From: Erysipelothrix larvae
GTDB taxonomy: Bacteria > Bacillota_I > Bacilli_A > Erysipelotrichales > Erysipelotrichaceae
DNA: 32,000 bases
Direction of reading: 5' to 3'
Assembly (NCBI RefSeq): GCF_001545095.1
Contig: NZ_CP013213.1
Location: 390,001-422,000 of the forward strand
The notes under the pieces are model-generated. The model had not been told where the DNA came from. It did no database searches and worked only from the letters and a program-made list of their open reading frames with translations. Shown piece after piece: positions 857 through 18,957 of this stretch; position 1 is the stretch's first letter, and each line of letters opens with the position of its first letter. A program made the translations under genes and the position numbers.

Positions 857-1591
857 ATGCTAAAAGTGCAACGACAACAAAAAATAATAGATTATTTAAA
901 GAATCATGAGTTTGCGCGTGTTGAAGACCTCGTATTACTTACCGATGCTTCAGAAATTACAGTTCGGCGTGATATTATTGAACTTCACGACAAGGGTAAA
1001 CTAAAAAAAGTGCATGGTGGTGCACAAAGCGTTGATCAGGAATGGGTTAACACTGACATTGATGTGGAAACACGTATCCTTGAAAACATTGACATTAAAA
1101 AAGAAATCGCAAAACGAGCCAGTGCGTTAGTACAAGATAACATGATTGTATATCTTGATGCGGGTTCAACCGTGGGTGAAATGATTCCTTTACTTAAAGG
1201 AAAGAAAATCATCGTTTATACCCATGGTGTTCACCACGTTACACGACTTGTACGACATGGTATTGAATGTCATCTTGTTGGTGGGGATGTGAAACCCGCA
1301 ACCCTAGCTTGTGTTGGTGTTGAGTGTATTCAAGCACTTTCACACTATAAGTTTGACCTTGCTTTTTTGGGAACCAACGCAGTTGATCCTGACTTTGGGT
1401 TTTCAACACCCGATGTGAATGAAGCAGCAGTAAAACGTAAAATCATTGAACAAGCACACGATGCATACTGCCTTGTGGACCATTCAAAGTTTTATAAAAT
1501 CTCAAAGGTATCCTTTGCAGATGGTGATGCATTAAAAATCATCACGGACATAAAACCTGAAGGTGCGGATACATCCTTTATCTTCGCATAA
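857..1591 (+). CDS. DeoR-family transcriptional regulator (FruR-like)
   Basis: SD GGGAGGG lies just upstream of ATG 857. The N-terminal HTH reads LTDASEITVRRDIIELHDKGKLKKVHGGA. DeoR C-terminal sensor motifs YLDAGST and FLGTNAV are present. Length (244 aa) is typical of FruR/DeoR regulators. The FruR assignment is only inferred, from fruK-fruA lying downstream in the window. Confidence 0.85.
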   Translation: MLKVQRQQKIIDYLKNHEFARVEDLVLLTDASEITVRRDIIELHDKGKLKKVHGGAQSVDQEWVNTDIDVETRILENIDIKKEIAKRASALVQDNMIVYLDAGSTVGEMIPLLKGKKIIVYTHGVHHVTRLVRHGIECHLVGGDVKPATLACVGVECIQALSHYKFDLAFLGTNAVDPDFGFSTPDVNEAAVKRKIIEQAHDAYCLVDHSKFYKISKVSFADGDALKIITDIKPEGADTSFIFA

Positions 1592-2259
1592 TCACAACTG
1601 TCATACGCTGTCACAATCTTTAAAAATGGATTGAATGATATGCTCGAGATCATTTCATATAACACATACACACTAAATCAAACAGACACGATTTTATAAT
1701 CCAAACCTGTTTGATTTTTTTTTGGATTTATCTTGGGTGACCCGAATGTTTTATTATTGAATCGTTTGAGAAAGGGAAAATGAACAGGGTAGGTCTACTA
1801 CCCATTTCAAGTCATGGCACCTGATGGAAGCCTTCGATACACAAATGGGGTTGTGTTTATCAATCCGTTTATTACACGGAGTACACGGATCACATCGTGT
1901 ACGGTATCTATGGTATCAGTGCGTCACTTTGACCTTGACCTCAATCTTCTGGATTTGAGGGTGTGCTAGGCTTATTAATTTGAGGATTGCTTCGTTCCAT
2001 AATAGTGTGCGACCTCTTTTCTACATTGGTTAAACGGCTTGTTTTTATGGTCTTCTGATCGGTTCCAAAACGAATCCGTGCATCTGTTTATTTAAACATC
2101 ACGGAAAACGCATTGTTTTGGGATTCATAGAAATGAGTGTATTTGTCAACTGAATAATGGTCCAAATCTCAATTGAAAACTGGTCCACTACCGTTTGTCA
2201 TTGAATGAGTTTTAAAAAACTGATATCATAGTCTTACTCCTTTTAGGAGGGTTTGGATT

Positions 2260-2302
2260 GGTAGAAACTTTTGTCTGCAAACTTGAGGTTTCTACCTTTT
2301 TT
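2260..2302 (+). terminator. Intrinsic terminator with no gene in front of it
   Basis: Perfect 9-bp stem GGTAGAAAC (2260-2268) / GTTTCTACC (2288-2296) followed by TTTTTT (2297-2302). No ORF of 60 aa or more lies upstream on either strand. Confidence 0.55.
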
Positions 2303-2518
2303 ATGAACTTCATTAAATTAAGTAAACCAAAAAACACTTATATACAGAAAACCATTTTGTATAAAGTAACGTAATGCTTTATTTTGATGGTCTAAGATAC
2401 TCAATTTATACCAATTAATCCTCAAACTTTCCTTAAGCAAGTGAAGAACGGTCAATTGCTTCACCTTTAAAAGTTGTGTTTTAAAGTGAAAACCCCAAGT
2501 TACATCTACTATCCTTTA

Positions 2519-2543
2519 TAAACATCCTTCTGGGTGTTTTTTT
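2519..2543 (+). terminator. Intrinsic terminator, copy A of a near-identical repeat flanking the three-gene cassette
   Basis: Stem AACATCC (2521-2527) / GGGTGTT (2532-2538), loop TTCT, T-run to 2543. It is nearly identical to the element at 5816-5839. Confidence 0.6.
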
Positions 2544-2664
2544 ACTTCATATGGAAGTCTCACAATGCAATGATAATAATTGTAGTTGAATAATGATTGG
2601 AAACTTTGTTAAAAAATAAAGAATAATAACAATGTCGTAATAATTCTGAAGCAAATATTCTAAA

Positions 2665-2726
2665 TTGAATAAAAACCTCAATTATTTAATACTTAAAGGA
2701 GCGATTAGGGGATTGTGGGGTATAAT
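2665..2726 (+). promoter_or_regulatory. Putative promoter region of the three-gene cassette (exact -35/-10 uncertain)
   Basis: Candidate TTGAAT (2665-2670) - 16 nt - TAATAC (2687-2692). There is also a perfect TATAAT at 2721-2726 without a good -35. The region is very AT-rich, and it is the only intergenic space ahead of the ATG at 2821. Confidence 0.3.
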
Positions 2727-2820
2727 GGATGCGCCATAAGGTCTGTATTATTAAAGGAAGGCGCATAGTGGAAGGTGCATCAGGTAAAAAATTGATGCTG
2801 TTCACAAGAAAAGGTAAATT

Positions 2821-3582
2821 ATGAAAGAATATAATGAAAGTGTAGATTATAAGGCCATGGATTTCTTTACGAAAGAAAGATACATCCAAATTCATTGGAA
2901 GTGGGTTGAGTATTACAAGACGCTTCGCGTAAGCATCGACAATAAAAGAATACATTTTTATCATGACAGCACACGATACGCTTTGAATTATGTCAACACA
3001 CTCTTTGCCGTGAGTGATCAAGATCGAAATGATGCACTGTTCTTGCTGTTACTGCGCTTGCTAAATTTCGAATGTATCAAGAGTGAGACACTTGATATTA
3101 CCATAGGTTTAGATAAAATTAACGGAAACTACAGTAGTTTCATTAATGACTTACTTGCGTTACTGAAGGGTTTTTCCTACATACGAATACTAACAATTGT
3201 ATTTGATGGCATTCCGGATGAAGTAATTGTCATTAATGAGTCAATCAACACTGCAAAGATTGAGCAATTAGAGATCGGAGCAAGTAAAGGACATTATAAT
3301 CAACATCCTGTTGTTGCGTTTGATGTATGCGAATTGTTCTACTTGGAACAACTCATTGTTCAAGTTAAGGATAATAAAAGCTTGGAAGTTCTCTTAAGAA
3401 GTAAGTCACTTAAGACAATTGAACTTTATCTAAGTGGATACAACAATGCAGAATTTGATATCATTAATGACGCATTACAAGTAATCGATATATATGCTTC
3501 AGCGAATTACCAAAGAGCAATGAGTTTTACAGAGTGTTTCACAGATGCCGCAGTTATTGTGAATGGATATCAGTTGAGGTAA
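2821..3582 (+). CDS. Hypothetical protein A of orphan operon (253 aa, no recognisable domain)
   Basis: ATG preceded by AAAGG 6 nt upstream. Uninterrupted 253-codon frame. Stop lies 4 nt before the next gene's start. AT-rich codon usage. I recognise no catalytic or binding motif. Leu/Ile-rich beta-alpha-like periodicity in the C-terminal half (LEQLIVQVKDNKSLEVLLRSKSLKTIELYLSG). Confidence 0.75.
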   Translation: MKEYNESVDYKAMDFFTKERYIQIHWKWVEYYKTLRVSIDNKRIHFYHDSTRYALNYVNTLFAVSDQDRNDALFLLLLRLLNFECIKSETLDITIGLDKINGNYSSFINDLLALLKGFSYIRILTIVFDGIPDEVIVINESINTAKIEQLEIGASKGHYNQHPVVAFDVCELFYLEQLIVQVKDNKSLEVLLRSKSLKTIELYLSGYNNAEFDIINDALQVIDIYASANYQRAMSFTECFTDAAVIVNGYQLR

Positions 3583-3586
3583 GAAC

Positions 3587-4378
3587 ATGACCTATATATT
3601 AGAACAAGTACTGAATGAAATCAAGACGGGTGTCAAGCAATATGAGGACGCAAACAGAACACACTTCAAACTTGGAGCGGTGGATAGTCTGTCAATGTTG
3701 ACTATTGAAGTTAGCGTAAATTTTGGAGCAATATTATATGAATATGAACCGACTAGTGATGAACCGTTTTCATTATATATTTCAATCAACCAATATTCAT
3801 TTGATTTTTCCGTCATTGATTTACCTACACTCATGAATGGTTTGAACAAGGAAATACTGATCGATGCAGTATTTATTGATTTTCTATGTGAGATTAAAAG
3901 TAAGATTGACTTTGAAATTTTATGTGGAGATATCTGCGAAATCATCAACATTAAGAGAATATTAACAATGTCAATTCGTGGGTTAGTGTATCAGAATGAA
4001 CGAGTATATTTAGATAACATTGATAATCGAACGCTAAGAAATTTATTTTTTGAGACACAGGTGAACTCAGATGGGTCTATAAGACATCATAAACAGTGTA
4101 TTGTCACATTTGGCAAAGCTGTTAAAATTAACTTAGAGGGTGCTTTCTTCAATGTTGCGAAATGGGATGACGTTGCAGTAGTATTGAGTACAGATCGAAT
4201 TACTGATTGTGTAATCAGATGTTATGACACACAAGAAGAGAATTTTAAAGCCATAAGCTCGAACACCTCTAATTTTCAATTAACAACATATTATGAACCA
4301 AACTTCATCAAACAGTACCTCACTGTTTGTAGTTATTGGGGAGTATGCTTATTAAAGTTTGAAGAAAACATATTTTGA
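3587..4378 (+). CDS. Hypothetical protein B of orphan operon (263 aa, no recognisable domain; possible distant paralog of A)
   Basis: SD GAGG 7 nt upstream of ATG 3587. 263-codon frame. Stop TGA at 4376-4378. Weak co-linear matches to protein A: SYIRILTIVFDG at residues 119-130 of A versus NIKRILTMSIRG at 121-132 of B, and RVSIDNKRIHFYH versus EVSVNFGAILYEY near residues 36-55. Confidence 0.75.
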   Translation: MTYILEQVLNEIKTGVKQYEDANRTHFKLGAVDSLSMLTIEVSVNFGAILYEYEPTSDEPFSLYISINQYSFDFSVIDLPTLMNGLNKEILIDAVFIDFLCEIKSKIDFEILCGDICEIINIKRILTMSIRGLVYQNERVYLDNIDNRTLRNLFFETQVNSDGSIRHHKQCIVTFGKAVKINLEGAFFNVAKWDDVAVVLSTDRITDCVIRCYDTQEENFKAISSNTSNFQLTTYYEPNFIKQYLTVCSYWGVCLLKFEENIF

Positions 4379-4401
4379 ACCGTATAAAAGGGAGAAGTAA
4401 C

Positions 4402-5682
4402 ATGAGCCAAGCGCATTACGAAACAATAAAGGAAGTTCTTGATAAATTTACAAAAGTACACAAAGAAAAAGAAGAAATCCTTGTGAACTTACCATTCAAC
4501 ATGCTTGAAGCACTGGGGATAGAGCGAAATGAAGTTAGAATAACACAACTTATTTATAGCCTGATTTCTCCAGGAAAATCAAAATATCATAAAGAATTCC
4601 TGATGTTATTTCTAAAAAATGTTTTAGGGTGTTCTGATTGTTATGATGACCACGTCAAATATAAGGTAAGAAGAGAAGTTACGATTAATCGTACAGAAGC
4701 GACAAGCACAGGAAGAATTGATTTGTTGATTGTGAAAGAATCAAGCAACAATTCCCTGTTAAATTTAATGCCAATTGAAGTTAAGATAGATGCCAAAGAC
4801 CAGCCTGAGCAATGTAGCCGATACTTAAAATATGTAGACTCACTAATGAAGCAAAAGAGTATCACTGACACAAAACCATCTAAACTATACTATCTAACAA
4901 TAGATGGGAGAAGTCCATCTGCGAACGCGTTTGAAAATATGAAAGTAGATAAACCAAGAGTAGTTGCAATATCTTTTAGAAAGCACATATTAAAGTGGTT
5001 GGATGAATGTCTAAAGCTAATCAATAATCAAGTAGGGAATCAAGATATTAATAGCGATGAACAAATCGCGAGTGCAATCAAATCATTTAAAGGAACGATA
5101 GAGAACATGACTAAAAAGAACAAACCCAATGATTCAATATTACAGATGCTTAAAGATAACCAGGAATACCTCCCAGCAATGTTCGAAATTAGAGATTTCT
5201 TGGATACCGGCTTAAAGGAAGTTGAGATTCATGTGCTAAAAGAGATATCTGAAGCAGTCAGTAAATCAGAGCGCTTTAACGGCCAATATTGCTTCGTTGA
5301 CGAGTATGCAATACTCAATTGTTATTCATATTTAAATTACAAAATCAAAACTGTTTTGGAATATGATAGAAATCTATATATTGCGGTAACGCTTTATAAT
5401 TCTGACGGTAAGATTACACATTTTGAAGAGGACCATCGAAAAATAGTTGAGAATTTAAAATGTAAATTATCGGATAAAACCACAGATGACGGATTCATTA
5501 CATGGAAGCACATAAAATTATCAACTGACGAAATATTAATAAGGGCGACTAAACATTCAAATCCATTTGATCACCTTAATAATGTAAAACAAATAGCAGA
5601 TGAGATCATAAATATATATCGTAGATTCGATGAGAAAATCAAACAGTTTATTTTAGAGAACTCAGAAGGTTATAATTTGTGA
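4402..5682 (+). CDS. PD-(D/E)XK nuclease-superfamily protein (PDDEXK_4 / PF14281-like), 426 aa
   Basis: I prefer ATG 4402 (SD AGGGAG at 4390-4395, 6 nt upstream) over the in-frame TTG at 4375 listed in the ORF track. N-terminal block FNMLEALGIERNEVRITQLIYSLISP is followed by GRIDLLI ... IEVKIDAKDQPEQCSRYLKY. That gives a D...(E)xK core with the DQ..Q..RY tail I recall for the PDDEXK_4 family. D codon at 4720-4722, E at 4777-4779, K at 4783-4785. Confidence 0.7.
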   Translation: MSQAHYETIKEVLDKFTKVHKEKEEILVNLPFNMLEALGIERNEVRITQLIYSLISPGKSKYHKEFLMLFLKNVLGCSDCYDDHVKYKVRREVTINRTEATSTGRIDLLIVKESSNNSLLNLMPIEVKIDAKDQPEQCSRYLKYVDSLMKQKSITDTKPSKLYYLTIDGRSPSANAFENMKVDKPRVVAISFRKHILKWLDECLKLINNQVGNQDINSDEQIASAIKSFKGTIENMTKKNKPNDSILQMLKDNQEYLPAMFEIRDFLDTGLKEVEIHVLKEISEAVSKSERFNGQYCFVDEYAILNCYSYLNYKIKTVLEYDRNLYIAVTLYNSDGKITHFEEDHRKIVENLKCKLSDKTTDDGFITWKHIKLSTDEILIRATKHSNPFDHLNNVKQIADEIINIYRRFDEKIKQFILENSEGYNL

Positions 5683-5815
5683 TGGTCTATGATAATCAGT
5701 TTACAGAAGAAAAAAGCCAAAATCCATAATGCAAGAGACGCGCTTTAGATGCCTTCGCTCCAAGAAATAGTGTTACGCGTGCCCCCCCAAAGTAAAGTTC
5801 GCGACTCACAATTTA

Positions 5816-5839
5816 CAAACATCCTTCGGGGTGTTTTTT
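5816..5839 (+). terminator. Intrinsic terminator of the cassette, copy B of the flanking repeat
   Basis: Stem AACATCC (5818-5824) / GGGTGTT (5829-5835), loop TTCG, T-run to 5839. It lies about 135 nt after the stop of the nuclease-like gene. Confidence 0.6.
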
Positions 5840-5876
5840 AGGTGATGCAAAAAATTTCTCTAAACAAGAAGAAATT

Positions 5877-5892
5877 AGGAAAACGATTTCAG
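5877..5892 (+). promoter_or_regulatory. cre / LacI-family operator-like palindrome 1 upstream of pullulanase
   Basis: AGGAAAACGATTTCAG has core GAAAACGATTTC, a near-palindrome around a central CG. It matches the cre consensus WTGNAANCGNWNNCW except at the T of TG. Confidence 0.4.
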
Positions 5893-5901
5893 GTCAGACC
5901 C

Positions 5902-5930
5902 TTGATTTTAGGAAAGCGTTTTCATATAAT
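5902..5930 (+). promoter_or_regulatory. Sigma-A type promoter of the pullulanase gene
   Basis: TTGATT (5902-5907) - 17 nt - TATAAT (5925-5930). It lies about 50 nt upstream of ATG 5979, which has SD AGGAGG. Confidence 0.65.
5910..5925 (+). promoter_or_regulatory. cre / LacI-family operator-like palindrome 2, between -35 and -10 of the pullulanase promoter
   Basis: AGGAAAGCGTTTTCAT with core GAAAGCGTTTTC (one mismatch from a perfect dyad). It occupies the promoter spacer, a classic repressor position. Confidence 0.4.
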
Positions 5931-5978
5931 GTTTGGGTAAGACTTGTTGGGGGCAAGATTTCAGTTCAGGAGGAGACT

Positions 5979-8900
5979 ATGCGGGTAAGAAAACACCTAT
6001 TACAATTTGTGTTATTGTTAAGCCTTGTATTTACTGCATTACAAGGTGCACCAGTGTCAGTGGTAAGGGCTGACAATGTTCGTGAGATTACGGTTCATTA
6101 TACGGGATCGAAACAAGATATTGCATTTCATTTATGGGATGAAACGGGCGGTTTTTTCCATAGTACACAAAAAGAAGCAAACTGGGATGATGGATCATAT
6201 CCAGCGGTGAGTGGCGATCACCCTTATTATGTTTTAAAAACAAACGAAACGGATAAGACGTGGACGTTAGGTGCCATTGTTCGGTATGGTGAGGATAAAG
6301 AAAAAGTGTATGAGGGAGATATACTCATTGAGATCACTCCTGAAGTTATAGATATTTATCTAGGGGATGATTCCCGTGTTTCTTTTGATGGAACCAGTAC
6401 AGCACCAACACCTGAATCAGATTCAACCGTTGGTCGTGATAGTACTTTTAAAAGTGATGCGAAAGACTACATCTACATTCATTTACTGAATGAAGGCATT
6501 AACCCAAGTCAACTCACCCTTTGGGCATGGGAAGATGCACATGATGATTACCGTGAAGGAAATTGGGATACAGATCGTTTACGTCCATATGATGTCACCG
6601 ATCAATTCGCAACCTTTAAGATTGGGTTGATTGACGATGCGCAACTCTTAGGATTCTTGTTTCACTATGGTGATTCACAGTCATCGGATTACTTCTTTGA
6701 TGTATCCACAGATGTTCGCGATATTTACCTAAGAAAAGATGATACGAATGTGTATCAAGATGCTGAGTTTTCGGATGTTCAAGTTCAATCTGTAAAATGG
6801 GTGGATGTGAATACCCTTGAAATTGGATTTCCATCGGCTACCACAATCGATGAGTCAAGCTTAAAAGACTCGATTGAGCTGTTTAAAAATGGACAGACCA
6901 TTGACTTTTCAATTGCGAAAGTTGAAGATAAGTCAGTTCAATTAACGGTTGGTGCACAGGATTTCAGCGTTAAGGACAACTACTCCATCACTATTGATGG
7001 GCGTTCAATGAATGTTGTGTTTGACTGGCGTTTTATGGATGAACATTACGCAACCGATGCGCCACTTGGAACTGATTGGAACAATGAAGCGGTAACCCTC
7101 AACTTCTGGTCACCCAGTGCAACACAGGTTGAAGTGGTGCTCTATGATAAAACCGACCAAACAAAGGTTTTAAAGACGTTTTCAATGGATGAAGTGGATC
7201 ATGTGTGGGTTCTTGAACTCAAACCAAGTGATGTGGGCGTTGATTCACTGACCAATACCTATTATCAATTTAAGATTACACGCTTTGGGGAAACAGTGTA
7301 TGGATTGGATCCCTATGCACGTTCCATGGCACCATGGGATGGGATTCATAAATCAGCAAGCTGTGATAGTACTCAGCCTGAGTGTATTGGTAAAGCAGCA
7401 TTTGTAAATCCTGCAAATACAACCATGGAAACAAGTTATGCTGACATTGAAGGCTATGAAGGCAGAGAAGATGCGATTATCTATGAAGTGCATGTTCGTG
7501 ACTTTACCTCTGATATTGAGATTGATGAGACACTCAAGGCGAAGTTTGGAACCTTCAGTGCTTTTATTGAGAAACTGGACTACATTGAGTCAATGGGTGT
7601 AACCCACATCCAACTCTTGCCAGTAATGGCCTATTACAATATCGATGAAAATAATCGTGATGAACGTGTGTGGGATGCCTTAGCACAAGGTGCTGATAGT
7701 AATTATAACTGGGGGTATGATCCACACAGTTACTTTACATTATCGGGTGTTTATTCTGAAGATAACACCAATGCAGAACTGAGAATTCAAGAGTTTAAAG
7801 CGCTCATTGATGAGATTCATAATCGTGAAATGGGCGTCATCTTGGATGTTGTATATAACCATACTGCAGCGGTTCATATCTTTGAAGACCTTCAACCAAA
7901 CTATTATCATTTTATGGACTTTATGGGGAATTCAAAAACAAGCTTTGGTGGGGGTCGTTTAGGAACAACGCACCACATGGCATCACGTATCCTTACCGAC
8001 TCAATCATGTATTGGGTTGAAGAGTTTAAGGTGGATGGGTTCCGTTTTGACATGATGGGTGACCATGATGCAGCGTCGATCCAAAGGGCTTATGATCTTG
8101 CATCGAAAGTGAATCCAAATATCCTCATGATTGGAGAAGGCTGGGTTACCTTTGTTGGGGATGATGATGAGCGTGTTCAAGCAGCGGATCAAAAATGGAT
8201 GCAATATACCAGTGCGGTTGGATCCTTCTCAGATGAGTTTAGAAATGAATTGAAATCTGGGTTTGGTAGTGAAGGTGAACCACGCTTCTTAACCAATGGG
8301 GCGCGTTATATTGAAACCATCTTCAATAATATCAAGGCGCAACCGGGTAACTTTAAAGCGGATGAGCCACACGATGTCGTGAACTATATTGAAGCACATG
8401 ATAATTTGACATTGTACGATGTGATTGCGCAATCCATAAAGAAAGATCCAAAGGATAACAATTCTGAAATCTTACAACGTCAACGTCTTGGAAACTTTAT
8501 GGTGTTCACCTCTCAAGGAACTGCCTTTATGCAGGCGGGTCAAGAATATGGGAAAACACGTCAGGTTAACATTGATGCATTTAAAGAACCGGTGGGTGCA
8601 TGTGGTACGACAATGGATGAACCCATTCATAAGGCAACCTGTATGTTGAATGCAGATGGCACACCATTTGAATATCCATACTTTATTCATGATTCCTATA
8701 ATTCAAGTGATAAAATTAATCACTTTGACTGGGCAAAAACACAGGATCGTGATACCTATCAAGAAAATGTTCATACCGTAGACTATACGAAAGGGTTAAT
8801 TGCACTGCGTCGTTCTGTTGATGCGTTTACCTTAGATACACTTGAAGCGATTGATGAGAAGGTTGTCCTGCTAGAGGTTGAAGAGCAAAACAGTGCGGAC

Positions 8901-9248
8901 TTAATGCTAGCGTATGCGATTTATGATGACGATGCGACGTATTATGTCTTAATTAATGGTGATGATGAAACACGTACTTTCACATTTGATTCAAAAACTG
9001 CATCCGCAATTCGTAAGGCAGAGGTACTTGTGGATAACCAACAAGCAGGATCAACTGCACTTGAAGAGGTCAGTGGGTTAAATCTTGACGAAACGATTAG
9101 CGTGGATGCACTGAGTGGCATTGTGCTTCGTGTTGAAACCCAATCATCAATGAACCAATACTACATTATGGGCGGTATTTTAGTTGTACTGGGTGTTGCA
9201 GTTGCGATTTATGCTAAAAAACATCCTAAAGTTAAACACGATTCATAA
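5979..9248 (+). CDS. pulA: Type I pullulanase (GH13), secreted, C-terminal transmembrane anchor
   Basis: N-terminal signal peptide (LLQFVLLLSLVFTALQGAPVSVVRA). Two pullulanase-associated/CBM41-like modules (HLWDETGG, TLWAWEDAHDD). CBM48-like segment (TLNFWSPSATQVEVVLYD). Pullulanase signature YNWGYDP. GH13 regions DVVYNH, GFRFDMMGD, GEGW and YIEAHDN. C-terminal helix YYIMGGILVVLGVAVAIYAKKH. Confidence 0.9.
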   Translation: MRVRKHLLQFVLLLSLVFTALQGAPVSVVRADNVREITVHYTGSKQDIAFHLWDETGGFFHSTQKEANWDDGSYPAVSGDHPYYVLKTNETDKTWTLGAIVRYGEDKEKVYEGDILIEITPEVIDIYLGDDSRVSFDGTSTAPTPESDSTVGRDSTFKSDAKDYIYIHLLNEGINPSQLTLWAWEDAHDDYREGNWDTDRLRPYDVTDQFATFKIGLIDDAQLLGFLFHYGDSQSSDYFFDVSTDVRDIYLRKDDTNVYQDAEFSDVQVQSVKWVDVNTLEIGFPSATTIDESSLKDSIELFKNGQTIDFSIAKVEDKSVQLTVGAQDFSVKDNYSITIDGRSMNVVFDWRFMDEHYATDAPLGTDWNNEAVTLNFWSPSATQVEVVLYDKTDQTKVLKTFSMDEVDHVWVLELKPSDVGVDSLTNTYYQFKITRFGETVYGLDPYARSMAPWDGIHKSASCDSTQPECIGKAAFVNPANTTMETSYADIEGYEGREDAIIYEVHVRDFTSDIEIDETLKAKFGTFSAFIEKLDYIESMGVTHIQLLPVMAYYNIDENNRDERVWDALAQGADSNYNWGYDPHSYFTLSGVYSEDNTNAELRIQEFKALIDEIHNREMGVILDVVYNHTAAVHIFEDLQPNYYHFMDFMGNSKTSFGGGRLGTTHHMASRILTDSIMYWVEEFKVDGFRFDMMGDHDAASIQRAYDLASKVNPNILMIGEGWVTFVGDDDERVQAADQKWMQYTSAVGSFSDEFRNELKSGFGSEGEPRFLTNGARYIETIFNNIKAQPGNFKADEPHDVVNYIEAHDNLTLYDVIAQSIKKDPKDNNSEILQRQRLGNFMVFTSQGTAFMQAGQEYGKTRQVNIDAFKEPVGACGTTMDEPIHKATCMLNADGTPFEYPYFIHDSYNSSDKINHFDWAKTQDRDTYQENVHTVDYTKGLIALRRSVDAFTLDTLEAIDEKVVLLEVEEQNSADLMLAYAIYDDDATYYVLINGDDETRTFTFDSKTASAIRKAEVLVDNQQAGSTALEEVSGLNLDETISVDALSGIVLRVETQSSMNQYYIMGGILVVLGVAVAIYAKKHPKVKHDS

Positions 9249-9260
9249 GAGAAACCAATG

Positions 9261-9286
9261 AAACACCCTTAAATGGGTGTTTTTTT
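9261..9286 (+). terminator. Intrinsic terminator after pullulanase
   Basis: AAACACCC (9261-9268) / GGGTGTTT (9275-9282), loop TTAAAT, T-run to 9286. It lies 13 nt after the stop. Confidence 0.75.
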
Positions 9287-9349
9287 GAGTGAAAACGCAA
9301 CTATTTGAGCAGTTAATGATAAAAAATGCAAGAAAATGATTGATTATGA

Positions 9350-9378
9350 TTGAAACCGTTATCAAGTTATGATATATT
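9350..9378 (+). promoter_or_regulatory. fruK promoter with overlapping cre site
   Basis: TTGAAA (9350-9355) - 17 nt - TATATT (9373-9378), preceded by TGA (extended -10). TTGAAACCGTTATCA (9350-9364) fits the cre consensus WTGNAANCGNWNNCW at every defined position. Confidence 0.55.
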
Positions 9379-9401
9379 GTTGGTGTAAAGGAGAGGATAA
9401 G

Positions 9402-10328
9402 ATGATCTGGATTTGTACGTTAAATCCTTCAATTGACTATCACATGTCCGTGGATTCCTTGGATTTAGGGAAGACCAATCGCAGTCAATGTGAACATGTT
9501 GTCATTGGAGGAAAAGGCATCAATGTCGCAATTGTACTGAATGAACTTGATGTTGCTTCAACTGTTTTTGGATTTGTCGGGGGTTTTACTGGAGATAAGA
9601 TTGTGAATGAACTCCAAAAATATCCACACATTCACGATGCATTGACCCGTGTTGAATACGACACACGGATTAATGTCAAGGTTAAGGGACAGGTTGAAAC
9701 AGAGATCAATGGACGTGGTCAACCGGTTAGTGAAACCGATGTTAAGACCATTGAGACAACGTTATCCCATGTGTCTAAAGGGGATCTTGTTGTATTGACG
9801 GGCAGTGTAGCAAATGGGATGGATTATCGCTGGTATCTCAACGTAGCACGTCAATGTTTAGATCGTGGCATCGAGTTTGTGGTGGACTTTGCAGACACAA
9901 CACTGCTTGAAGTGCTCAAGTATAAACCACGCTTAATTAAACCAAATGTGAGTGAACTTGAGGCTATTTTAAATACACCGATTGAAACCGATGAAGACAT
10001 CATCAAGGGTGCACAAAAACTTGTGAGTCTTGGTGCACAAGCATGCATCATATCAAATGGAGCAAAAGGGTCATTTCTTGTGACACACGATGCAATCTTC
10101 ACATCGAATATTCCTGAAGGTGACTTTAAGAATTCTGTAGGGTCGGGGGACTCAATGGTTGCAGGATATCTTAAAGGATACATCGCACAAGAGTCTATAA
10201 GCACCTCATATCAATATGCAGTTGCATGTGCAAGTGCCACCGCTTATTCAGAACACCTTGCCACACATGAGGCAATCGATCAACTTATGAAACGAGTAAA
10301 AATATCAGAGGTAGGAGGAACATTATGA
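9402..10328 (+). CDS. fruK: 1-phosphofructokinase (PfkB family)
   Basis: I prefer ATG 9402 (SD AAAGGAGAGG upstream), giving MIWICTLNPSIDY, the characteristic FruK N-terminus. GGKGINVA and GSGDSMVAG PfkB motifs are present. Its stop overlaps the fruA start (ATGA). Confidence 0.9.
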   Translation: MIWICTLNPSIDYHMSVDSLDLGKTNRSQCEHVVIGGKGINVAIVLNELDVASTVFGFVGGFTGDKIVNELQKYPHIHDALTRVEYDTRINVKVKGQVETEINGRGQPVSETDVKTIETTLSHVSKGDLVVLTGSVANGMDYRWYLNVARQCLDRGIEFVVDFADTTLLEVLKYKPRLIKPNVSELEAILNTPIETDEDIIKGAQKLVSLGAQACIISNGAKGSFLVTHDAIFTSNIPEGDFKNSVGSGDSMVAGYLKGYIAQESISTSYQYAVACASATAYSEHLATHEAIDQLMKRVKISEVGGTL

Positions 10329-12184
10329 AACTCGAAAATGTACTTAGACAAAGCGTAATGATGTTAGACCTTAAATCAACATCCAAAGAAGCCGTGATTC
10401 ATGAACTGGTGATGATGTTGGTAGAAGATGGTGTATTGGATAAATCAAATCGTGAAGCGTTTGAATCGGTAATTTGGGAACGAGAAAAGATCAGCAGTAC
10501 AGGTGTTGGCGATGGGGTTGCGATTCCTCATGGTATGAGTGAACTTATTTCAAAACCAACTGTTGTATTTGGTAAGAGTACCCAAGGCATTGAATTCAAT
10601 AGTTTAGATGGTAAACCGGCATGCTTGTTTTTCATGATTGCGACACCAAAAAACTCAAACAATGATCACTTGGCATTATTGTCACAACTCTCCGCACGAC
10701 TTATGAATGAAACTGTGATTCAATCACTCACACAAGCAACTTCAAAACAACAGGTGCAAGACATTTTAAATGCAGATGTTTCACAAACAGTCAGTGAAGT
10801 AGATGACGATGCGCCATTTGTGGTTGCGGTAACAGCATGTGCAACAGGTATTGCCCATACTTATATGGCACAAGAAAAACTGCAAAGTGCTGCGGGTGTT
10901 CATCATGTCAACATTAAAGTTGAAACCAACGGTTCAGCAGGTGTAAAAAATAAGTTATCCGCTCAAGATATTGAAAAAGCAGTGGGTGTTATTGTTGCGG
11001 CAGACATTCATGTTGAGATGAATCGTTTTGCAGGAAAACCACTGGTTCATGTTCCTGTGGCGCAAGCGATAAATAAAGCAGATTCATTAATTGAAACCAT
11101 TGTGAATGGTAATGTCCCTGCTTATGTCGCTTCACATCAAGACAAAAAAGAGTCTGAAGCACCAAAAGGCGTGTATCAACACCTTATGAATGGTGTATCT
11201 CATATGTTGCCTTTTGTAATTGCAGGGGGAATCTTGATTGCGATTGCCTTTATGATTGACCAAATCATTGGGGTACCAACCGATAGTTTAGGGAAACTGG
11301 GAAGTTATAATGAACTTGCAGCAACCTTCAATACGATTGGTGGGATGGCCTTTGGCTTCATGCTTCCAGTTCTTGCAGGATATATCGCAATGAGTATTGC
11401 GGATCGACCAGGTCTTGTTGTTGGGTTTGTAGCAGGCGGCCTTGCAAGTGCAGGGGGTGCAGGATTCTTAGGTGCACTCTTGGGTGGATTTGTCTCAGGC
11501 TATGCGATGAACGGGACAAAGAAACTCCTTGAAGGACTCCCAACCTCCATGGATGGGATTCGAACAGTACTGCTTTATCCATTGTTTGGTGTCCTTGTCG
11601 TGGGACTTGTGATGACCTTAGTCAATTATCCAATGAGCGCTTTGAATAATGCGATGAATAATTTCCTTACAGGTCTTTCTGGAACCAATGCAATCCTATT
11701 AGGACTCATCTTAGGAACAATGATGGCCATTGACTTGGGTGGACCGATAAATAAGGCAGCCTATGTCTTTGGTACAGGGACACTTACTGCAACAGTCAGT
11801 ACAGGGGGAAGTGCAGTGATGGCTGCGGTAATGGCTGCAGGGATGGTTCCTCCATTGGGTGTATTTATCGCAACACAACTCTTTAAAAACAAGTTCACGA
11901 AAGACCAACAACAAGCCGGTCTTACAAACTTAATCTTGGGAGCATCCTTTATTACTGAAGGTGCCATTCCCTTTGCATCCAGTGACCCAATTCCAATGTT
12001 GATTAGTTTTGTGGGTGGATCTGCGATTGCATCAGCGCTTGTGTTAATGTCTGGAATTCAAGTGCTTGCTCCTCATGGTGGTATCTTTGTCATCATGCTT
12101 GTATCCAATCCATTGCTCTATATTGCTTACATTGCAATAGGTTCTGTGATTTCTGGAGTACTCATCGGACTGCTTAAAAAATAA
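10325..12184 (+). CDS. fruA: PTS fructose-specific EIIABC component
   Basis: EIIA-2 domain with AIPHG histidine. EIIB with VTACATGIAHTYMA cysteine motif. Long polytopic EIIC domain. Translationally coupled to fruK. Confidence 0.9.
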   Translation: MKLENVLRQSVMMLDLKSTSKEAVIHELVMMLVEDGVLDKSNREAFESVIWEREKISSTGVGDGVAIPHGMSELISKPTVVFGKSTQGIEFNSLDGKPACLFFMIATPKNSNNDHLALLSQLSARLMNETVIQSLTQATSKQQVQDILNADVSQTVSEVDDDAPFVVAVTACATGIAHTYMAQEKLQSAAGVHHVNIKVETNGSAGVKNKLSAQDIEKAVGVIVAADIHVEMNRFAGKPLVHVPVAQAINKADSLIETIVNGNVPAYVASHQDKKESEAPKGVYQHLMNGVSHMLPFVIAGGILIAIAFMIDQIIGVPTDSLGKLGSYNELAATFNTIGGMAFGFMLPVLAGYIAMSIADRPGLVVGFVAGGLASAGGAGFLGALLGGFVSGYAMNGTKKLLEGLPTSMDGIRTVLLYPLFGVLVVGLVMTLVNYPMSALNNAMNNFLTGLSGTNAILLGLILGTMMAIDLGGPINKAAYVFGTGTLTATVSTGGSAVMAAVMAAGMVPPLGVFIATQLFKNKFTKDQQQAGLTNLILGASFITEGAIPFASSDPIPMLISFVGGSAIASALVLMSGIQVLAPHGGIFVIMLVSNPLLYIAYIAIGSVISGVLIGLLKK

Positions 12185-12189
12185 GGAAT

Positions 12190-12242
12190 AAACCTTGTAG
12201 ATATTGATTCATGTTTTGAATTCTTTCTGCAAGGTTTTTTTG
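12190..12242 (+). terminator. Terminator after fruA
   Basis: AAACCTTG(TAG) ... (CTG)CAAGGTTT stem followed by TTTTTTT (12235-12241). The loop is rather large (about 27 nt). Confidence 0.55.
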
Positions 12243-12329
12243 TTATTTTGTGTGATAATTAAGTTATTGATTCACATTAGATTATTCTGTGGTATTCTAA
12301 ATAACAGTTAACCATTTTTTTGTGTTACA

Positions 12330-12338
12330 TGTTATAAT
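12330..12338 (+). promoter_or_regulatory. Extended -10 element upstream of cdaA
   Basis: TGTTATAAT (TGnTATAAT) ends 22 nt before ATG 12360, with SD AGGAGG in between. I saw no convincing -35. Confidence 0.35.
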
Positions 12339-12359
12339 TAATAAGGTTAGGAGGTTTCT

Positions 12360-13535
12360 ATGCCACTCAATTTATTATGGTTTCAGTCATTTTTACAAGC
12401 AGTAAAAGTGCTCATCGATTTTTTAATTGTTTGGGTTCTTATTTACTACATTTTAAAAGTGGTCCGAAACAACTCAAGAACAGTGCAAATTTTTAAAGGG
12501 GTAGTGGTCATAATCCTAGTGCGATTTGTAGCACTTTATTTAGGTTTATCAACAGTACAAGCTTTAGCAGATTTCGCAATTCAATATGGTTTTATCGTTT
12601 TTGTGGTTATATTTCAACCTGAAATACGCGGACTCTTGGAACGTCTTGGTAAGACATCAGTATTCTCATCAATTAATACACTTACTGGAAACGAACGTGA
12701 GCGTCTGGTTAATGATTTAGTGAATGCGGCAGTGACGTTGTCACGGCGTAAAACAGGTGGACTTATTACCTTGGAACAAGGACATTCATTGGTCGATTAT
12801 ATTAAAACAGGAACCCCAATTAATGCCACCGTTACTGAAGATTTACTAACGTCAATCTTTGTAACTACAACACCACTTCATGATGGTGCTGTGATTATTA
12901 AAGGAGATCGCGTTGCGTGTGCATCTGCGTATTTCCCACCAACTGCTCGTGAATTATCCTCACGCTATGGTGCGCGTCACCGTGCAGCGTTGGGAATCAG
13001 TGAAATCACCGATTCAATTACGATTGTTATTTCTGAGGAAACTGGAACTATCTCAATTGCAGAAGGTGGTAAATTGACGGAAGTGGATGAATTTAGCTTG
13101 CGTGATTATTTAAATTCTGTCATTAAAAACACAGAGAAGGAAGTAAGCGAGAAGATTGATACACGGATATCACGTCGTATTAACTTTGGTCGTTTAAATG
13201 TGGATCCAATTCGTGTTGAACGCGTAGATGGTGAAGAAATTCCTCAATTAAAGAAACAAAAAGAAAAGAAAGAACAAACAGAAAAAACAAAAGAAGGCTT
13301 TGTTGGAAGCTTTAAGAAACGTCGTGAAATGAAAAAAGAAAAACGTGAAGAACTTAAAGAATCTAGCAAGAAGGTTTATAAAAAAGATCGTTCGGATTCT
13401 AAACCCGAACCAAAAGATGGTCGTGTTAATTTAGAAGACATTAAGTCTGCAACACGGATTAATGACGACGCTGACAGTGAAAATCGTGCAGAAACACATT
13501 CTGATCAACGTGATGGAGGTGAGTCTGATGAGTGA
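12360..13535 (+). CDS. cdaA: Diadenylate cyclase CdaA (c-di-AMP synthase) with a long charged C-terminal extension
   Basis: Three N-terminal TM helices. DAC domain with the LHDGAVII (DGA) and GARHRAALG (RHR) motifs. Residues from about 256 to 391 are a Lys/Glu/Asp-rich low-complexity tail. The stop overlaps the cdaR start by 8 nt. Confidence 0.9.
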   Translation: MPLNLLWFQSFLQAVKVLIDFLIVWVLIYYILKVVRNNSRTVQIFKGVVVIILVRFVALYLGLSTVQALADFAIQYGFIVFVVIFQPEIRGLLERLGKTSVFSSINTLTGNERERLVNDLVNAAVTLSRRKTGGLITLEQGHSLVDYIKTGTPINATVTEDLLTSIFVTTTPLHDGAVIIKGDRVACASAYFPPTARELSSRYGARHRAALGISEITDSITIVISEETGTISIAEGGKLTEVDEFSLRDYLNSVIKNTEKEVSEKIDTRISRRINFGRLNVDPIRVERVDGEEIPQLKKQKEKKEQTEKTKEGFVGSFKKRREMKKEKREELKESSKKVYKKDRSDSKPEPKDGRVNLEDIKSATRINDDADSENRAETHSDQRDGGESDE

Positions 13536-14883
13536 AAAACATAAGGGGTCAAAGGGACATCCAACCAATGAGAAAACAGAAATAGCACAACGTATCGCCA
13601 AGCAATCCGCTCGGTTTGCACGTCGTTATGAAGCAGTGACTGATTTTGTTTCACGCATATTCCGTTGGTTTAGTGCGTGGTTTGACCGTATTATTTTCAA
13701 TCAGAAGTACAGTAAACTTGTTGCATTTGTTGTCGCAATTCTTGTTGTTATGGCATTTACAAACAACCCTGTGGAACCATTATTCCAAACGAAAACATTA
13801 ACACGTGTGAAAGTCAATGCGATTTATAACTCTGAAATGTATGAAGTAGAAGGCATTCCAGAATATGTTGAAGTGAATATAATTGGTGATTACAGTGATG
13901 TTATCTCTGTGAATGCTAATGATATTACTGTGGACTTAGATCTTGGTAAGTTGACAGAAGGTCAACACCAAGTTGACTTTGTGCCTGTGGGTGTATCACA
14001 GCGTGTACGGGCAACCGTCACACCATCATCTGCAAGAGTCACAATTCGACTCAAAGAAACCAAGACGATGGAACTCAGTTATGACTTTATTAACCTTGAT
14101 AAACTTGGTAATCAATTTGTCTTGGGTGAAGTAACCCTCGATAATCGCGATGTCACAATCTCTGCTTCAAGAGAAACTCTAGATACCATCGCATTTGTGA
14201 AAGCGTTGATTGACGTGAGTGGTAAAACCGAAACCTTTACACAAGAAGCAAATGTTGTAGCGTATGATCAAAATGGTAACCGTGTTGAAAATGCAGATGT
14301 GATTCCACGTGTTGTGAATGCAACCGTTGAAGTGTCATCACCAAGTAAGACCGTACCAATTTATGTATCCATTGAAGGGGCAATCCCAAATAACAAGGCC
14401 GTTGCTTCAATTACACAAGATCATAATGCGATTACGATTTATGGACCACTTTCAGTATTGGATACGATTGATGAGATTGTAATCTCAGTACCCGCATCTA
14501 CCTTGACACAAGGGCGTATGACACACAACATTACCCTGCCAACAGGTGTTCGTTATGGTAATGTATCGAAGGTTAACCTTGACGTTAAATTAGGTGATGC
14601 AGTCACCCAAACATTCGACAACATTCCGATTACATATCGAGAAAATGTGAATGGATTTAAGATTCGGGCAACCAATGAAGATGACTTTACAACATCAATT
14701 ACGGTAACCGGTACCGCAGAAAATATTGCAAGCTTTAACAGAGACAACATCGCAGTATTTATCAATATGCGAAATATTCAAGAAGGAAACAATCAAGAAG
14801 TTCAATTGTATGTTGATTCGAACTTTACCTTACTCAACATTGTCTCAACGAAACAAACAATTATTATTGATGTCATTAAGTAA
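13528..14883 (+). CDS. cdaR: CdaR / YbbR-domain regulator of CdaA
   Basis: I prefer ATG 13528 (SD GGAGGTGAG upstream; MSEKHKG...) over the upstream in-frame start at 13462. One N-terminal TM helix followed by repeated YbbR-like beta-rich modules. Canonical position between cdaA and glmM. Confidence 0.85.
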   Translation: MSEKHKGSKGHPTNEKTEIAQRIAKQSARFARRYEAVTDFVSRIFRWFSAWFDRIIFNQKYSKLVAFVVAILVVMAFTNNPVEPLFQTKTLTRVKVNAIYNSEMYEVEGIPEYVEVNIIGDYSDVISVNANDITVDLDLGKLTEGQHQVDFVPVGVSQRVRATVTPSSARVTIRLKETKTMELSYDFINLDKLGNQFVLGEVTLDNRDVTISASRETLDTIAFVKALIDVSGKTETFTQEANVVAYDQNGNRVENADVIPRVVNATVEVSSPSKTVPIYVSIEGAIPNNKAVASITQDHNAITIYGPLSVLDTIDEIVISVPASTLTQGRMTHNITLPTGVRYGNVSKVNLDVKLGDAVTQTFDNIPITYRENVNGFKIRATNEDDFTTSITVTGTAENIASFNRDNIAVFINMRNIQEGNNQEVQLYVDSNFTLLNIVSTKQTIIIDVIK

Positions 14884-16898: not shown

Positions 16899-18238
16899 GT
16901 AAATTCAAAAACTGGGTTCGTAATCTGTCACTTGCACAACAATTATTTGTGATTGTTGTTTTTGTGATGTCCTTCCTCTTTGTATTTTTCTTTGGCGTGT
17001 TATCGGTCAGTGTGGATGAATTTGTAAAGTCACAAATGAGCTATATGCTACACCATGCTCAAGATACTGTGATCGAAAACTACAAAATGGGACTGGGAAA
17101 AGAGAATGTATTTGGGGTGCGTGATGATTCAATTACCCACATTATTCAAAAGAAAGATGGGACCTTATGGTTTTCATCCGATGATGCAATGGAAGAAATT
17201 GATACAACTTTACTCCAACAACTTGTCATCCAAATGAATGCAATTGAGTTGTATGATCGCATTAACTATACCAGTGGAACTCAAAACTTAATTGCGATTC
17301 AAAATATTGATAAAGAAGCAACCATTGCTTCAATCATGTCGATTCAGTATCAAAACAATTTTAAACGGGCACTTTTAAATAGTTTTGTGTATTTAATCAT
17401 GGTTACCATGAGTGTGCTTTTTGTACTCTTAGTTTTATGGATGAGTACCATCATTCACCCGTTGAATCAGATTAAAGACTATATTGAAAAGATCAAACAA
17501 CAAAAAAAGGCAACGCTGCGTATTGACCGTGGGGATGAGATTGGAGCGGTTGCTAATGCGCTTGTCGAGATGAATGAAGAAATTCAACGACAACAAGCAC
17601 AAAAAGAAGAAATGCTACAGAATATTTCCCATGATTTAAAGACACCTGTTGCGACCATTAAATCATACAGTGAAGCCATCAAAGACGGAATCTATCCTTA
17701 TGAGACCTTAGAGAAGTCTGTCGATGTGATTTTAGAACATGCCAATCGACTTGAAAAGAAAGTGTATAATCTGTTGATGTTGAATCGTATGGATTATATG
17801 ACCAATGAACAAATTAAATCCAATGAGAAGTTACACCTTGCTCCCATTGTGGAACAAGTGATTGTATCATCCAAACAAATACGCCCTGAAATTGACTTGA
17901 AGTTAGAATTAAAAGGGGATGATTTATTTGTAGGCCAAGAAGAACCATGGCGTGTAGTGATAGAGAATTTATTGGACAATGCCCTTCGCTATAGTGAAAC
18001 ATGCATTGTGATTACCATAAATTCAAATGAATTAAGAGTTTACAATGACGGAAAAGGCGTGGATCCAAATCGGATTCAACAGCTCTTTAAACCGTATGAA
18101 AAGGGGGAGCAAGGCCAGTTTGGTCTTGGATTGGCAATTGTTTATCGTGTCGTAACAAACTATGGTTATTCAATTTCTGTTCAAAACGAAGATCGTGGCG
18201 TTTGCTTTACCATTAAAAGGAAAGAAGGAAAAAAATGA
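16895..18238 (+). CDS. Sensor histidine kinase (2 TM, HAMP, HisKA, HATPase_c)
   Basis: ATGA overlap with the response-regulator stop. H-box ISHDLKTPVATIKSY, N-box ENLLDNALRY, G-box GLGLAIV. Two hydrophobic helices flank a domain of about 130 aa outside the membrane. Confidence 0.9.
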   Translation: MSKFKNWVRNLSLAQQLFVIVVFVMSFLFVFFFGVLSVSVDEFVKSQMSYMLHHAQDTVIENYKMGLGKENVFGVRDDSITHIIQKKDGTLWFSSDDAMEEIDTTLLQQLVIQMNAIELYDRINYTSGTQNLIAIQNIDKEATIASIMSIQYQNNFKRALLNSFVYLIMVTMSVLFVLLVLWMSTIIHPLNQIKDYIEKIKQQKKATLRIDRGDEIGAVANALVEMNEEIQRQQAQKEEMLQNISHDLKTPVATIKSYSEAIKDGIYPYETLEKSVDVILEHANRLEKKVYNLLMLNRMDYMTNEQIKSNEKLHLAPIVEQVIVSSKQIRPEIDLKLELKGDDLFVGQEEPWRVVIENLLDNALRYSETCIVITINSNELRVYNDGKGVDPNRIQQLFKPYEKGEQGQFGLGLAIVYRVVTNYGYSISVQNEDRGVCFTIKRKEGKK

Positions 18239-18957
18239 AAAGCACTAAAGAACAGCATCTTGCCGTTTTGATTGATGCAGAAAATGTTCCACATGCAAAC
18301 ATCGCAGGTATTTTGGAAGAAATTGCACGTTATGGAACACCAACTATCAAACGAATTTACGGAGATTGGACACGACAAAGCGCTTCAGGGTGGAAACAAC
18401 ACCTCTTGGAGAATGCCATCACACCAATCCAACAATACGCATATACCACTGGTAAGAACTCATCAGATTCTGCGATGATAATTGACGCAATGGACTTGCT
18501 TTATGAAGGCAATGTCGAGCGCTTCTGCATCATCTCCAGTGATTCAGACTTTACCCGTCTTGCGGTGCGCTTACGCGAATCAGGACGCTATGTAATCGGC
18601 ATTGGCGAACGAAAGACACCCAGTGCATTTATCGTTGCGTGTGATAAGTTCATCTATATGGACCTTATTGAAATGAAAACACCAACACAAGAACAAGACT
18701 TACAAGTTTCTAAGAAAAAACTCAGTGATTTAAAGCATTTGGTTGAGTCATCCATTAATGACCTAGCAGATGATAATGGTTATGTGTTTATGGGTGATCT
18801 GGGGAATTTATTAATGAAGAAACGTCCGGATTTCGACCCTCGTGATTATGGTTTCTATCAATTAACACAATTGTTAAAAGCGATGAAACTATTTGACATT
18901 GACGAAAGAAGGGTAGAAAATAGTAACGTAAAACACGTATATATACGTAATCGATGA
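18235..18957 (+). CDS. NYN-domain (LabA/DUF88-like) protein with C-terminal OST-HTH/LOTUS domain
   Basis: ATGA overlap with the kinase stop. LAVLIDAENV ... IYGDW ... NSSDSAMIIDAMD ... IISSDSDFTRLAVRLRESG is the NYN/PIN-like acidic-residue pattern. The C-terminal GYVFMGDLGNLLMKKRPDFDPRDYGFYQLTQLLKAM resembles OST-HTH. Confidence 0.8.
   Translation: MKSTKEQHLAVLIDAENVPHANIAGILEEIARYGTPTIKRIYGDWTRQSASGWKQHLLENAITPIQQYAYTTGKNSSDSAMIIDAMDLLYEGNVERFCIISSDSDFTRLAVRLRESGRYVIGIGERKTPSAFIVACDKFIYMDLIEMKTPTQEQDLQVSKKKLSDLKHLVESSINDLADDNGYVFMGDLGNLLMKKRPDFDPRDYGFYQLTQLLKAMKLFDIDERRVENSNVKHVYIRNR

Follow-up and report, generated by a model that had tools for sequence, protein, structure and literature searches.

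Phage defence candidates (PDCs) are 145 systems that were put forward by 'guilt-by-embedding' in BREX, DISARM and type I restriction-modification (RM) loci (Payne et al., bioRxiv 10.1101/2024.01.29.577857). Among them, PDC-S26 is a single-gene candidate (bioRxiv 10.1101/2024.01.29.577857), and it was named as frequent cargo of pipolins (PMC11551731). Beyond the source paper, this pipolin survey was the only literature on PDC-S26 that we found. For the Pfam family PDDEXK_4 (PF14281) the function is listed as unknown (PMC3424549); a literature search on IPR029470 and the supplements of the PDC paper gave no match. Here, a stretch of 32,000 nt from Erysipelothrix larvae (assembly GCF_001545095.1, contig NZ_CP013213.1, positions 390,001 to 422,000 of the forward strand), called the window in the following, was analysed. 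It contains a cassette of three genes, A, B and C, which is missing in a sister strain and whose third gene encodes a candidate nuclease of PDC-S26. We consider the chances about evenly balanced that this is an accessory cassette with C as a stand-alone PDC-S26 defence effector, A and B being accessory at most or unrelated cargo. As the nuclease family had been catalogued as a candidate before, the architecture does not count as undescribed. New are the pairing of a PDC-S26 nuclease with two orphan genes and a clean pair of filled and empty site for an integrase-less cassette.

Gene C (AOC36_01875, 4402-5682; 426 amino acids from the ATG) was compared with described families. It matched Pfam PDDEXK_4 with 85.3 bits (gathering cut-off 22.3; E 6.7e-24), amino acids 32-207 being aligned with positions 1-167 of the 183 of the profile. 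The PADLOC model PDLC04983 of PDC-S26 was matched with E 2.8e-38 by amino acids 10-412 (11-409 of 413 on the model), and two more PDC-S26 models matched C end to end (E 5.1e-33 and 7.2e-31). PDC-S26 models were the only ones in PADLOC-DB 2.0 with a match to C; Shedu, Gabija, Lamassu, Septu, Hachiman, PD-T4/T7/Lambda and the other systems gave none. Scans of C against NCBIfam and PHROGs yielded nothing further. A preliminary description of this DNA had proposed that C has a PD-(D/E)XK core resembling PDDEXK_4, which the Pfam score bears out. It had also stated that the operon matches no known defence architecture, and this was wrong for C in view of the full-length match to PDC-S26. Classification by defence-finder tools extends to C, not to A and B.

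A protein search with C retrieved eight distant relatives with at most 39% identity over half of the length. Across the family alignment C is 23-29% identical to the retrieved members. E92, D107, E126, K128, Q137 and Y141 are invariant in the alignment of nine sequences (C and its relatives), and D107, E126 and K128, formerly suggested as catalytic residues, are thus among the conserved positions. The catalytic signature of C is RecB-like, D...ExK...QxxxY, with all catalytic residues intact. We take the QxxxY motif to put C in the RecB/Cas4-like branch of the PD-(D/E)XK superfamily. In general, C is a predicted divergent PD-(D/E)XK nuclease of PDDEXK_4 and PDC-S26 with intact catalytic residues. 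It resembles the members of PDDEXK_4 in its score above the cut-off and in D107, E126, K128, Q137 and Y141, but the Pfam domain spans only amino acids 32-207 (4495-5022). The C-terminal half (amino acids 208-426; 5023-5679) is mostly helical and lies outside the Pfam match and inside the full-length PDC-S26 models.

An AlphaFold model of C, built on a shallow alignment of the relatives, showed predicted local distance difference test (pLDDT) values of 70-93 over about amino acids 40-240 and below 50 over 262-426. With Foldseek against the PDB, only weak matches of this model were obtained, the nuclease domains of MspJI, PaqCI, Cdn1 and SduA leading (best E 0.01). A profile search of PDB sequences with the C family gave no match. 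Shedu SduA, MspJI, PaqCI, Cap4 and Cdn1 have a catalytic fold as in C and were the best, yet weak, Foldseek matches (E 0.01-1). They differ from C in that none of their PADLOC models matches it and no fold match is significant. No SRA, SAVED, CARF or DUF4263 domain was detected in C. The C-terminal half would serve regulation, sensing or oligomerisation. By analogy, C would follow a logic similar to that of single-protein nuclease defences, with effector and regulatory domain in one polypeptide.

In other genomes relatives of C were found among defence genes. One lies beside Cas4/Cas1/Cas2, PDC-S41, type I HsdM and PDC-S02 (locus L004), another adjoins a type IV restriction enzyme (L006). Further relatives occur with a KAP nucleoside triphosphatase like QatA, PifA or PDC-S20 and a WYL regulator (L008), on a Vibrio plasmid with an HNH and a DrmC-like PLD nuclease (L009), with an OLD-like endonuclease, a Cas4-like DUF2779 protein and WYL (L010), and with an IetA-like ATPase and WYL (L011). 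A relative at the edge of a Mu-like prophage was detected as well (L001). Eleven plasmids and five IMG/VR contigs carry relatives of C; none was found in deposited phage genomes. When the neighbours in 14 loci were compared all against all, the WYL regulator was, the nuclease aside, the sole family common to independent loci; L011 and L077, which are close relatives, also have flanking genes in common. A conserved partner gene of the C family was not found among these 14 loci. Since the neighbours are unrelated, WYL aside, the PDC-S26 relatives appear to be a stand-alone, defence-associated gene with changing neighbours. The occurrence of relatives as single genes in defence neighbourhoods argues for C, too, as a stand-alone DNA-cutting effector.

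Thus, C resembles PDC-S26 in two respects, the match to three models over essentially the whole length and relatives beside RM, CRISPR, WYL and other defence genes. It differs in being the third gene of an operon with two orphans, the neighbours in the 14 loci of relatives being variable. Furthermore, C has housekeeping genes around it instead of BREX, DISARM or type I RM, unlike the relative in L004. A location among defence genes holds for relatives of C in other genomes, but not for the cassette itself, which by Pfam stands among housekeeping and carbohydrate genes.

Four further observations were made in the loci of the relatives. WYL regulators are located one or two genes from PDDEXK_4/PDC-S26 relatives (L008 7755-8747, L010 7534-8340, L011 6210-7115, L077 7159-8064); the window contains none. 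A HAD-type hydrolase or 5'-nucleotidase is encoded on the same strand directly beside relatives of C in three independent loci (L005 3443-4078, L006 1061-1963, L011 4265-4906), and together with the nuclease it may form a recurrent two-gene pairing within PDC-S26. On a viral contig (L076) a PDDEXK_4 gene (57-1286) has another copy of weak similarity behind it (1458-2546). In L080 the nuclease gene (5890-7080) is followed by an overlapping open reading frame (ORF) of 396 amino acids (7050-8240), the C-terminal part of which is like the HNH endonuclease of L009.

The genes A (AOC36_01865, 2821-3582; 253 amino acids), B (AOC36_01870, 3587-4378; 263 amino acids) and C lie on the plus strand, as do all cassette features given below. 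The gap is 4 nt between A and B and 23 nt between B and C. Each start is preceded at 4-6 nt by a Shine-Dalgarno (SD)-like site, for which anti-SD pairing of -6.1 (A), -7.0 (B) and -9.0 kcal/mol (C) was calculated; reference values were -2.7 +/- 2.5 kcal/mol for 21-mers of the island and -10 to -13 kcal/mol for host genes. The open frame of C starts upstream at TTG 4375, but this codon is without SD (-2.5 kcal/mol), and therefore ATG 4402 was taken as the start. A terminator-like hairpin on the left (2520-2542; AAACATCC-TTCT-GGGTGTTT, then a T-run) folds at -8.8 kcal/mol (z -4.0) and was picked up by the terminator scan. The right one (5817-5839, TTCG loop, -10.2 kcal/mol) missed the T-run rule of the scan, yet it is a near-identical copy of the left hairpin, and it ends the A-B-C unit when integrated. 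A search for the hairpin motif gave these two matches in the window, compared with none expected by chance. The preliminary description had reported three same-strand ORFs with these lengths and gaps, an SD for each and two bracketing terminators. The ORF coordinates and gaps were read directly from the DNA, and the pairing and folding energies are in agreement with the remainder.

The AT-rich leader (2543-2820) has a G+C content of 0.29-0.32 in 500-nt windows across it. This region is presumed to hold the cassette promoter. A perfect -10 hexamer TATAAT is present at 2721-2726 without a good -35, and a promoter scan gave 9/12 consensus matches at most (2598-2627, 2801-2830). An upstream ORF of 31 codons (2729-2824) encodes a strongly basic peptide (MRHKVCIIKGRRIVEGASGKKLMLFTRKGKL), and its TGA overlaps the ATG of A (ATGA). 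Its SD pairing of -9.1 kcal/mol is stronger than that of A, and it may be a translationally coupled leader peptide. Leader, A, B, C and terminator are a single predicted transcription unit.

Both terminator hairpins are the ends of two copies of a 160-bp direct repeat, a feature that had been missed before. The repeat search found two colinear, equally spaced matches, 2515-2542/5812-5839 and 2382-2408/5677-5703. The left copy (2382-2542) and the right copy (5677-5839) are 65.5% identical; shuffled sequence reached 49.7 +/- 1.9%, and control segments next to the repeats reached 49-52%. The right copy opens at the last codons and the stop of C and has the terminator hairpin at its end; in the alignment, the stop codon of C (TGA, 5680-5682) faces a TGA at 2385-2387.

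An empty site was identified in a sister strain. In a cluster look-up at 90%, one close relative each was found for DeoR, pullulanase and FruA, all on one 20-kb Logan contig (run SRR6161627; L012), and none for A, B and C. In L012, 1,095 bp separate deoR from the pullulanase gene, versus 4,387 bp here. Positions 1832-4378 of L012 correspond to 1-2543 of the window with 97.3% identity and positions 4307-13422 to 5770-14883 with 98.8%, and both alignments overlap on one repeat copy. A three-way alignment showed that the repeat of L012 is a hybrid, which follows the left copy up to a GTGTT core (2476-2480) and the right copy from its partner core GTGTT (5770-5774) on. Accordingly, the left copy is divided into a host-like part that matches the sister strain (2382-2480) and a cassette-specific part (2481-2542), the right copy into a cassette-specific (5677-5774) and a host-like part (5775-5839). 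The junction in L012 reads ...AAAAGTTGTGTT directly followed by ACGCGTGCC.... The strains differ by exactly one unit from repeat to repeat, 3,294 bp long, with an in-register exchange at the 5-bp core. This segment is given as 2481-5774 and can equally be written as 2476-5769 owing to the core. The earlier view of a self-contained unit is strengthened by a sister strain without exactly this 3.3-kb segment.

The repeats differ by about 35%, the flanks by 1-3%. Hence, the repeats are far older than the split of the strains, or they were never identical. The cassette would have been gained or lost by in-register recombination at GTGTT between the diverged 160-bp repeats. A circularised segment would give a complete unit of C, about 150 nt, the hairpin 2520-2542 as terminator of C, the AT-rich leader of 280 nt and A. 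The junction of such a circle would read ...GAAATAGTGTT directly followed by TTAAAGTGAAAACC.... No second copy of the cassette module was found in the window, and searches of genome contigs with DeoR and with pullulanase for the site of related species gave nothing. Divergence of the flanks was examined as a sign of imported DNA; it was only about 5% in the 250 bp beside each junction and was uninformative. The repeat hairpin was also considered as a marker of mobile elements and rejected. Its 20-nt sequence AAACATCCTTCNGGGTGTTT was present in 47 metagenome and 16 viral contigs (L013-L075) with a similarity of 23-32 nt only, and since the similarity never runs further, the hairpin is a generic TTCG-loop terminator.

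Elements of the CIME type, which are cis-mobilisable and integrase-less, consist of a short cargo module between direct repeats. The cassette is comparable to them in its short cargo, in its direct repeats at both ends, in its presence in one strain and absence from another and in the one hybrid repeat at the empty site. It differs in the low identity of the repeats of only 65%, in a crossover at a 5-bp core in the middle of the repeat and in the lack of a recombinase in the 32-kb window. It resembles integron cassettes in that its repeat, like an attC, begins at the stop codon that closes the last gene (C). The hypothesis of an integron attC was rejected; no attC-like long hairpin was found (a short terminator hairpin and local stems only), nor an integrase in the 32-kb window.

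For A and B, homologues were sought on several levels. Among 5.8 billion protein clusters (word-indexed search) each gave self matches only, and an exhaustive phmmer search with A and B concatenated against 1.84 billion representatives returned the two self matches only. Comparisons with PDB sequences, plasmids (tblastn) and viral contigs revealed nothing. At E <= 1, no model of Pfam, PADLOC or NCBIfam matched A or B. In PHROGs a single match of A at E 0.12 was treated as noise, and B had none. No relationship was seen between A and B, between either of them and the profile of the C family, or with any neighbour of the relatives of C in the 14 loci. Both proteins are acidic and soluble (pI 5.1 for A; pI 4.7 for B, with 3% cysteine) and have no hydrophobic segment of transmembrane strength. 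An impression of leucine-rich repeats in A and B was dropped; internal repeats were not found. The single-sequence AlphaFold model of A had a pLDDT of 40.6 and was unusable for a fold search. By these searches A and B are lineage-restricted orphans and not conserved components of the C family.

These results bear on the question of a true three-component defence or abortive-infection system, in which A and B would sense infection or restrain the nuclease and C would execute. The spacing of the genes (4 nt and 23 nt) and a single leader and terminator are consistent with it. So are the joint gain or loss of the three genes in a 3,294-bp unit and the unusual composition and level of codon usage that they share. 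Upstream of several relatives of C, too, a gene of unknown function lies at a short distance (275 amino acids in L005, 317 in L008 and 459 in L001), but none of these genes is related to A, to B or to another of them. Since A and B have no homologues anywhere searched, no co-conservation of the trio was seen. Moreover, PDC-S26 is catalogued as a single-gene candidate, and none of the PADLOC, Pfam, NCBIfam and PHROG models fits A or B. The three-gene system of the preliminary description was not borne out by the co-occurrence check, A and B being without homologues and the neighbours of the relatives of C unrelated. We regard a three-component system as unlikely, though clearly worth considering.

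A selfish module for maintenance or mobility was considered as another explanation. Here, C would be a toxin neutralised by the acidic A or B, or C would aid recombination at the 160-bp repeats. The cassette lies between repeats, differs from strain to strain and lacks a recombinase of its own in the window, all of which would fit. The pI values of 5.1 and 4.7 would fit an antitoxin as well, but a pI near 5 is ordinary for cytosolic proteins. Some PD-(D/E)XK proteins promote recombination or transposition. The Pfam family PDDEXK_2 is listed as putative transposase (PMC3424549). On the other hand, a PD-(D/E)XK nuclease alone does not account for a precise reciprocal exchange, and likeness to any toxin-antitoxin or transposase family was not found; for toxin-antitoxin families, A and B had no match in Pfam, PADLOC, NCBIfam and PHROGs. 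Comparable repeats were not seen beside relatives of C in the loci examined, no systematic search having been made. A selfish module is judged rather improbable.

The coding signal and the base composition were examined with regard to a decaying relic without current function, an old insertion being lost, in which A and B would be fortuitous or degenerating ORFs. In DNA of the composition of the cassette, the chance of a stop-free run of 253-426 codons is P about 4e-10 to 2e-16, and the codon log-odds are above 0 solely in the annotated frames of A, B and C. Both results argue that A, B and C are real genes, or were so until very recently. A relic would be consistent with the presence of the cassette in one genome and not in the sister strain, with the adjoining ORF-free stretch of 0.9 kb, and with SD sites and a codon adaptation weaker than those of host genes. 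It is at odds with three intact ORFs (chance 4e-10 or less in this composition), with the frame-specific coding signal, with the intact state of every catalytic residue of C and with properly spaced starts and SD sites. A relic appears very improbable, and both this and the selfish module are less likely than the stand-alone effector and the three-component system.

The G+C content is 0.335 for the cassette and 0.327-0.348 for the individual genes, compared with 0.395 +/- 0.021 for 22 host genes in the window (z of A, B and C -2.2 to -3.2) and 0.38-0.46 for the flanks in 500-nt windows. The contrast in G+C that had been reported from hand counts is thus real, but the 43-60% given then for the flanks was too high. 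At third codon positions (GC3), A, B and C show 0.30-0.35 and equal the host mean of 0.346; the deficit is confined to codon positions 1 and 2 and reflects the frequent use of the amino acids I, L, N, K, D and E. Because GC3 equals that of the host, the composition is weak evidence for a (recent) foreign origin, and the former argument for horizontal acquisition from G+C is weak.

For the stand-alone effector the following mechanism is proposed. C would cut invading DNA in an anti-phage or anti-plasmid function. Its N-terminal metal-dependent nuclease would be held in check by its own helical, family-specific C-terminal half. A and B would be co-transcribed cytosolic proteins, acting as modulator, inhibitor or specificity factor of C, or they would be unrelated cargo. 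Several points weigh against this explanation. A defence island was not seen around the cassette, whose neighbours were assigned by Pfam to housekeeping and carbohydrate functions, no scan of their proteins against PADLOC having been made. The source paper lists all 145 PDCs as untested (bioRxiv 10.1101/2024.01.29.577857). Among the proteins of the 32-kb window there is no recombinase. An insertion here and an excision in the sister lineage predict the same sequences. The tight packing of A, B and C and their joint gain or loss would fit a true three-part system as well. Finally, with the cassette in a single genome, selection on A and B is not measurable.

A more far-reaching version of the three-component idea can be formulated. 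Two orphans would control the PDC-S26 nuclease in a new kind of immune module, which would be an integrase-less 3.3-kb cassette docking through in-register recombination between 160-bp 'terminator modules', and the ORF-free 0.9 kb would have been left behind by earlier cassettes where such elements dock. We hold this version to be very doubtful.

If C protects against phage, it would be the first functional data point for PDC-S26, which is found across phyla, on plasmids and in pipolins. The orphan partners would illustrate how lineage-specific accessory genes come to be added to a conserved nuclease effector. Whatever the function, the filled and the empty site are a pair with which recombinase-less cassette movement between diverged repeats in a Gram-positive chromosome is directly testable. 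If none of the readings holds, the locus would be an ordinary strain-specific islet, which is common in most genomes.

The DNA to the left of the cassette is exceptional in its lack of genes. Between deoR and the left repeat (1592-2381) there are stops in all six frames, and this stretch is 95-98% identical in L012. Counted to 2481, the ORF-free DNA of about 0.9 kb corresponds to 3423-4310 of L012 and is unusually long non-coding DNA for a Firmicute of 2.5 Mb. A pseudogene or RNA in 1592-2820 was considered and rejected, with no Pfam match in six frames, no Rfam match and no strong structure signal. A decayed copy of C was not found by tblastn. The stretch may be what earlier occupants of the site left behind. 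Just past deoR a hairpin CAAACAG...CTGTTTG with nine T is located at 1680-1725 (the segment 1592-1741 folds at z = -2.9), which is probably the terminator of deoR.

Proteins of the flanks were assigned with Pfam as LemA, DUF2207, DeoR, pullulanase, FruK, FruA, CdaA and GlmM. In 857-12184 the DeoR-family regulator is parted from fruK-fruA by the cassette and a cell-surface pullulanase of 1,089 amino acids. The pullulanase gene separates the operon from its presumed fructose regulator in both strains. The DUF2207 membrane protein ends C-terminally (740-831) in a glycine-rich tail (GGGGFGGGSSGGGGFSGGGFGGSGGGGW), for which short GGCGGTGGCTTTGG direct repeats code. Two further genes are unlinked to the cassette. 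The first (18235-18957) encodes a NYN ribonuclease with an OST-HTH/LOTUS domain, the second (29712-30992), close to the window's right end, a DUF285/leucine-rich-repeat protein.

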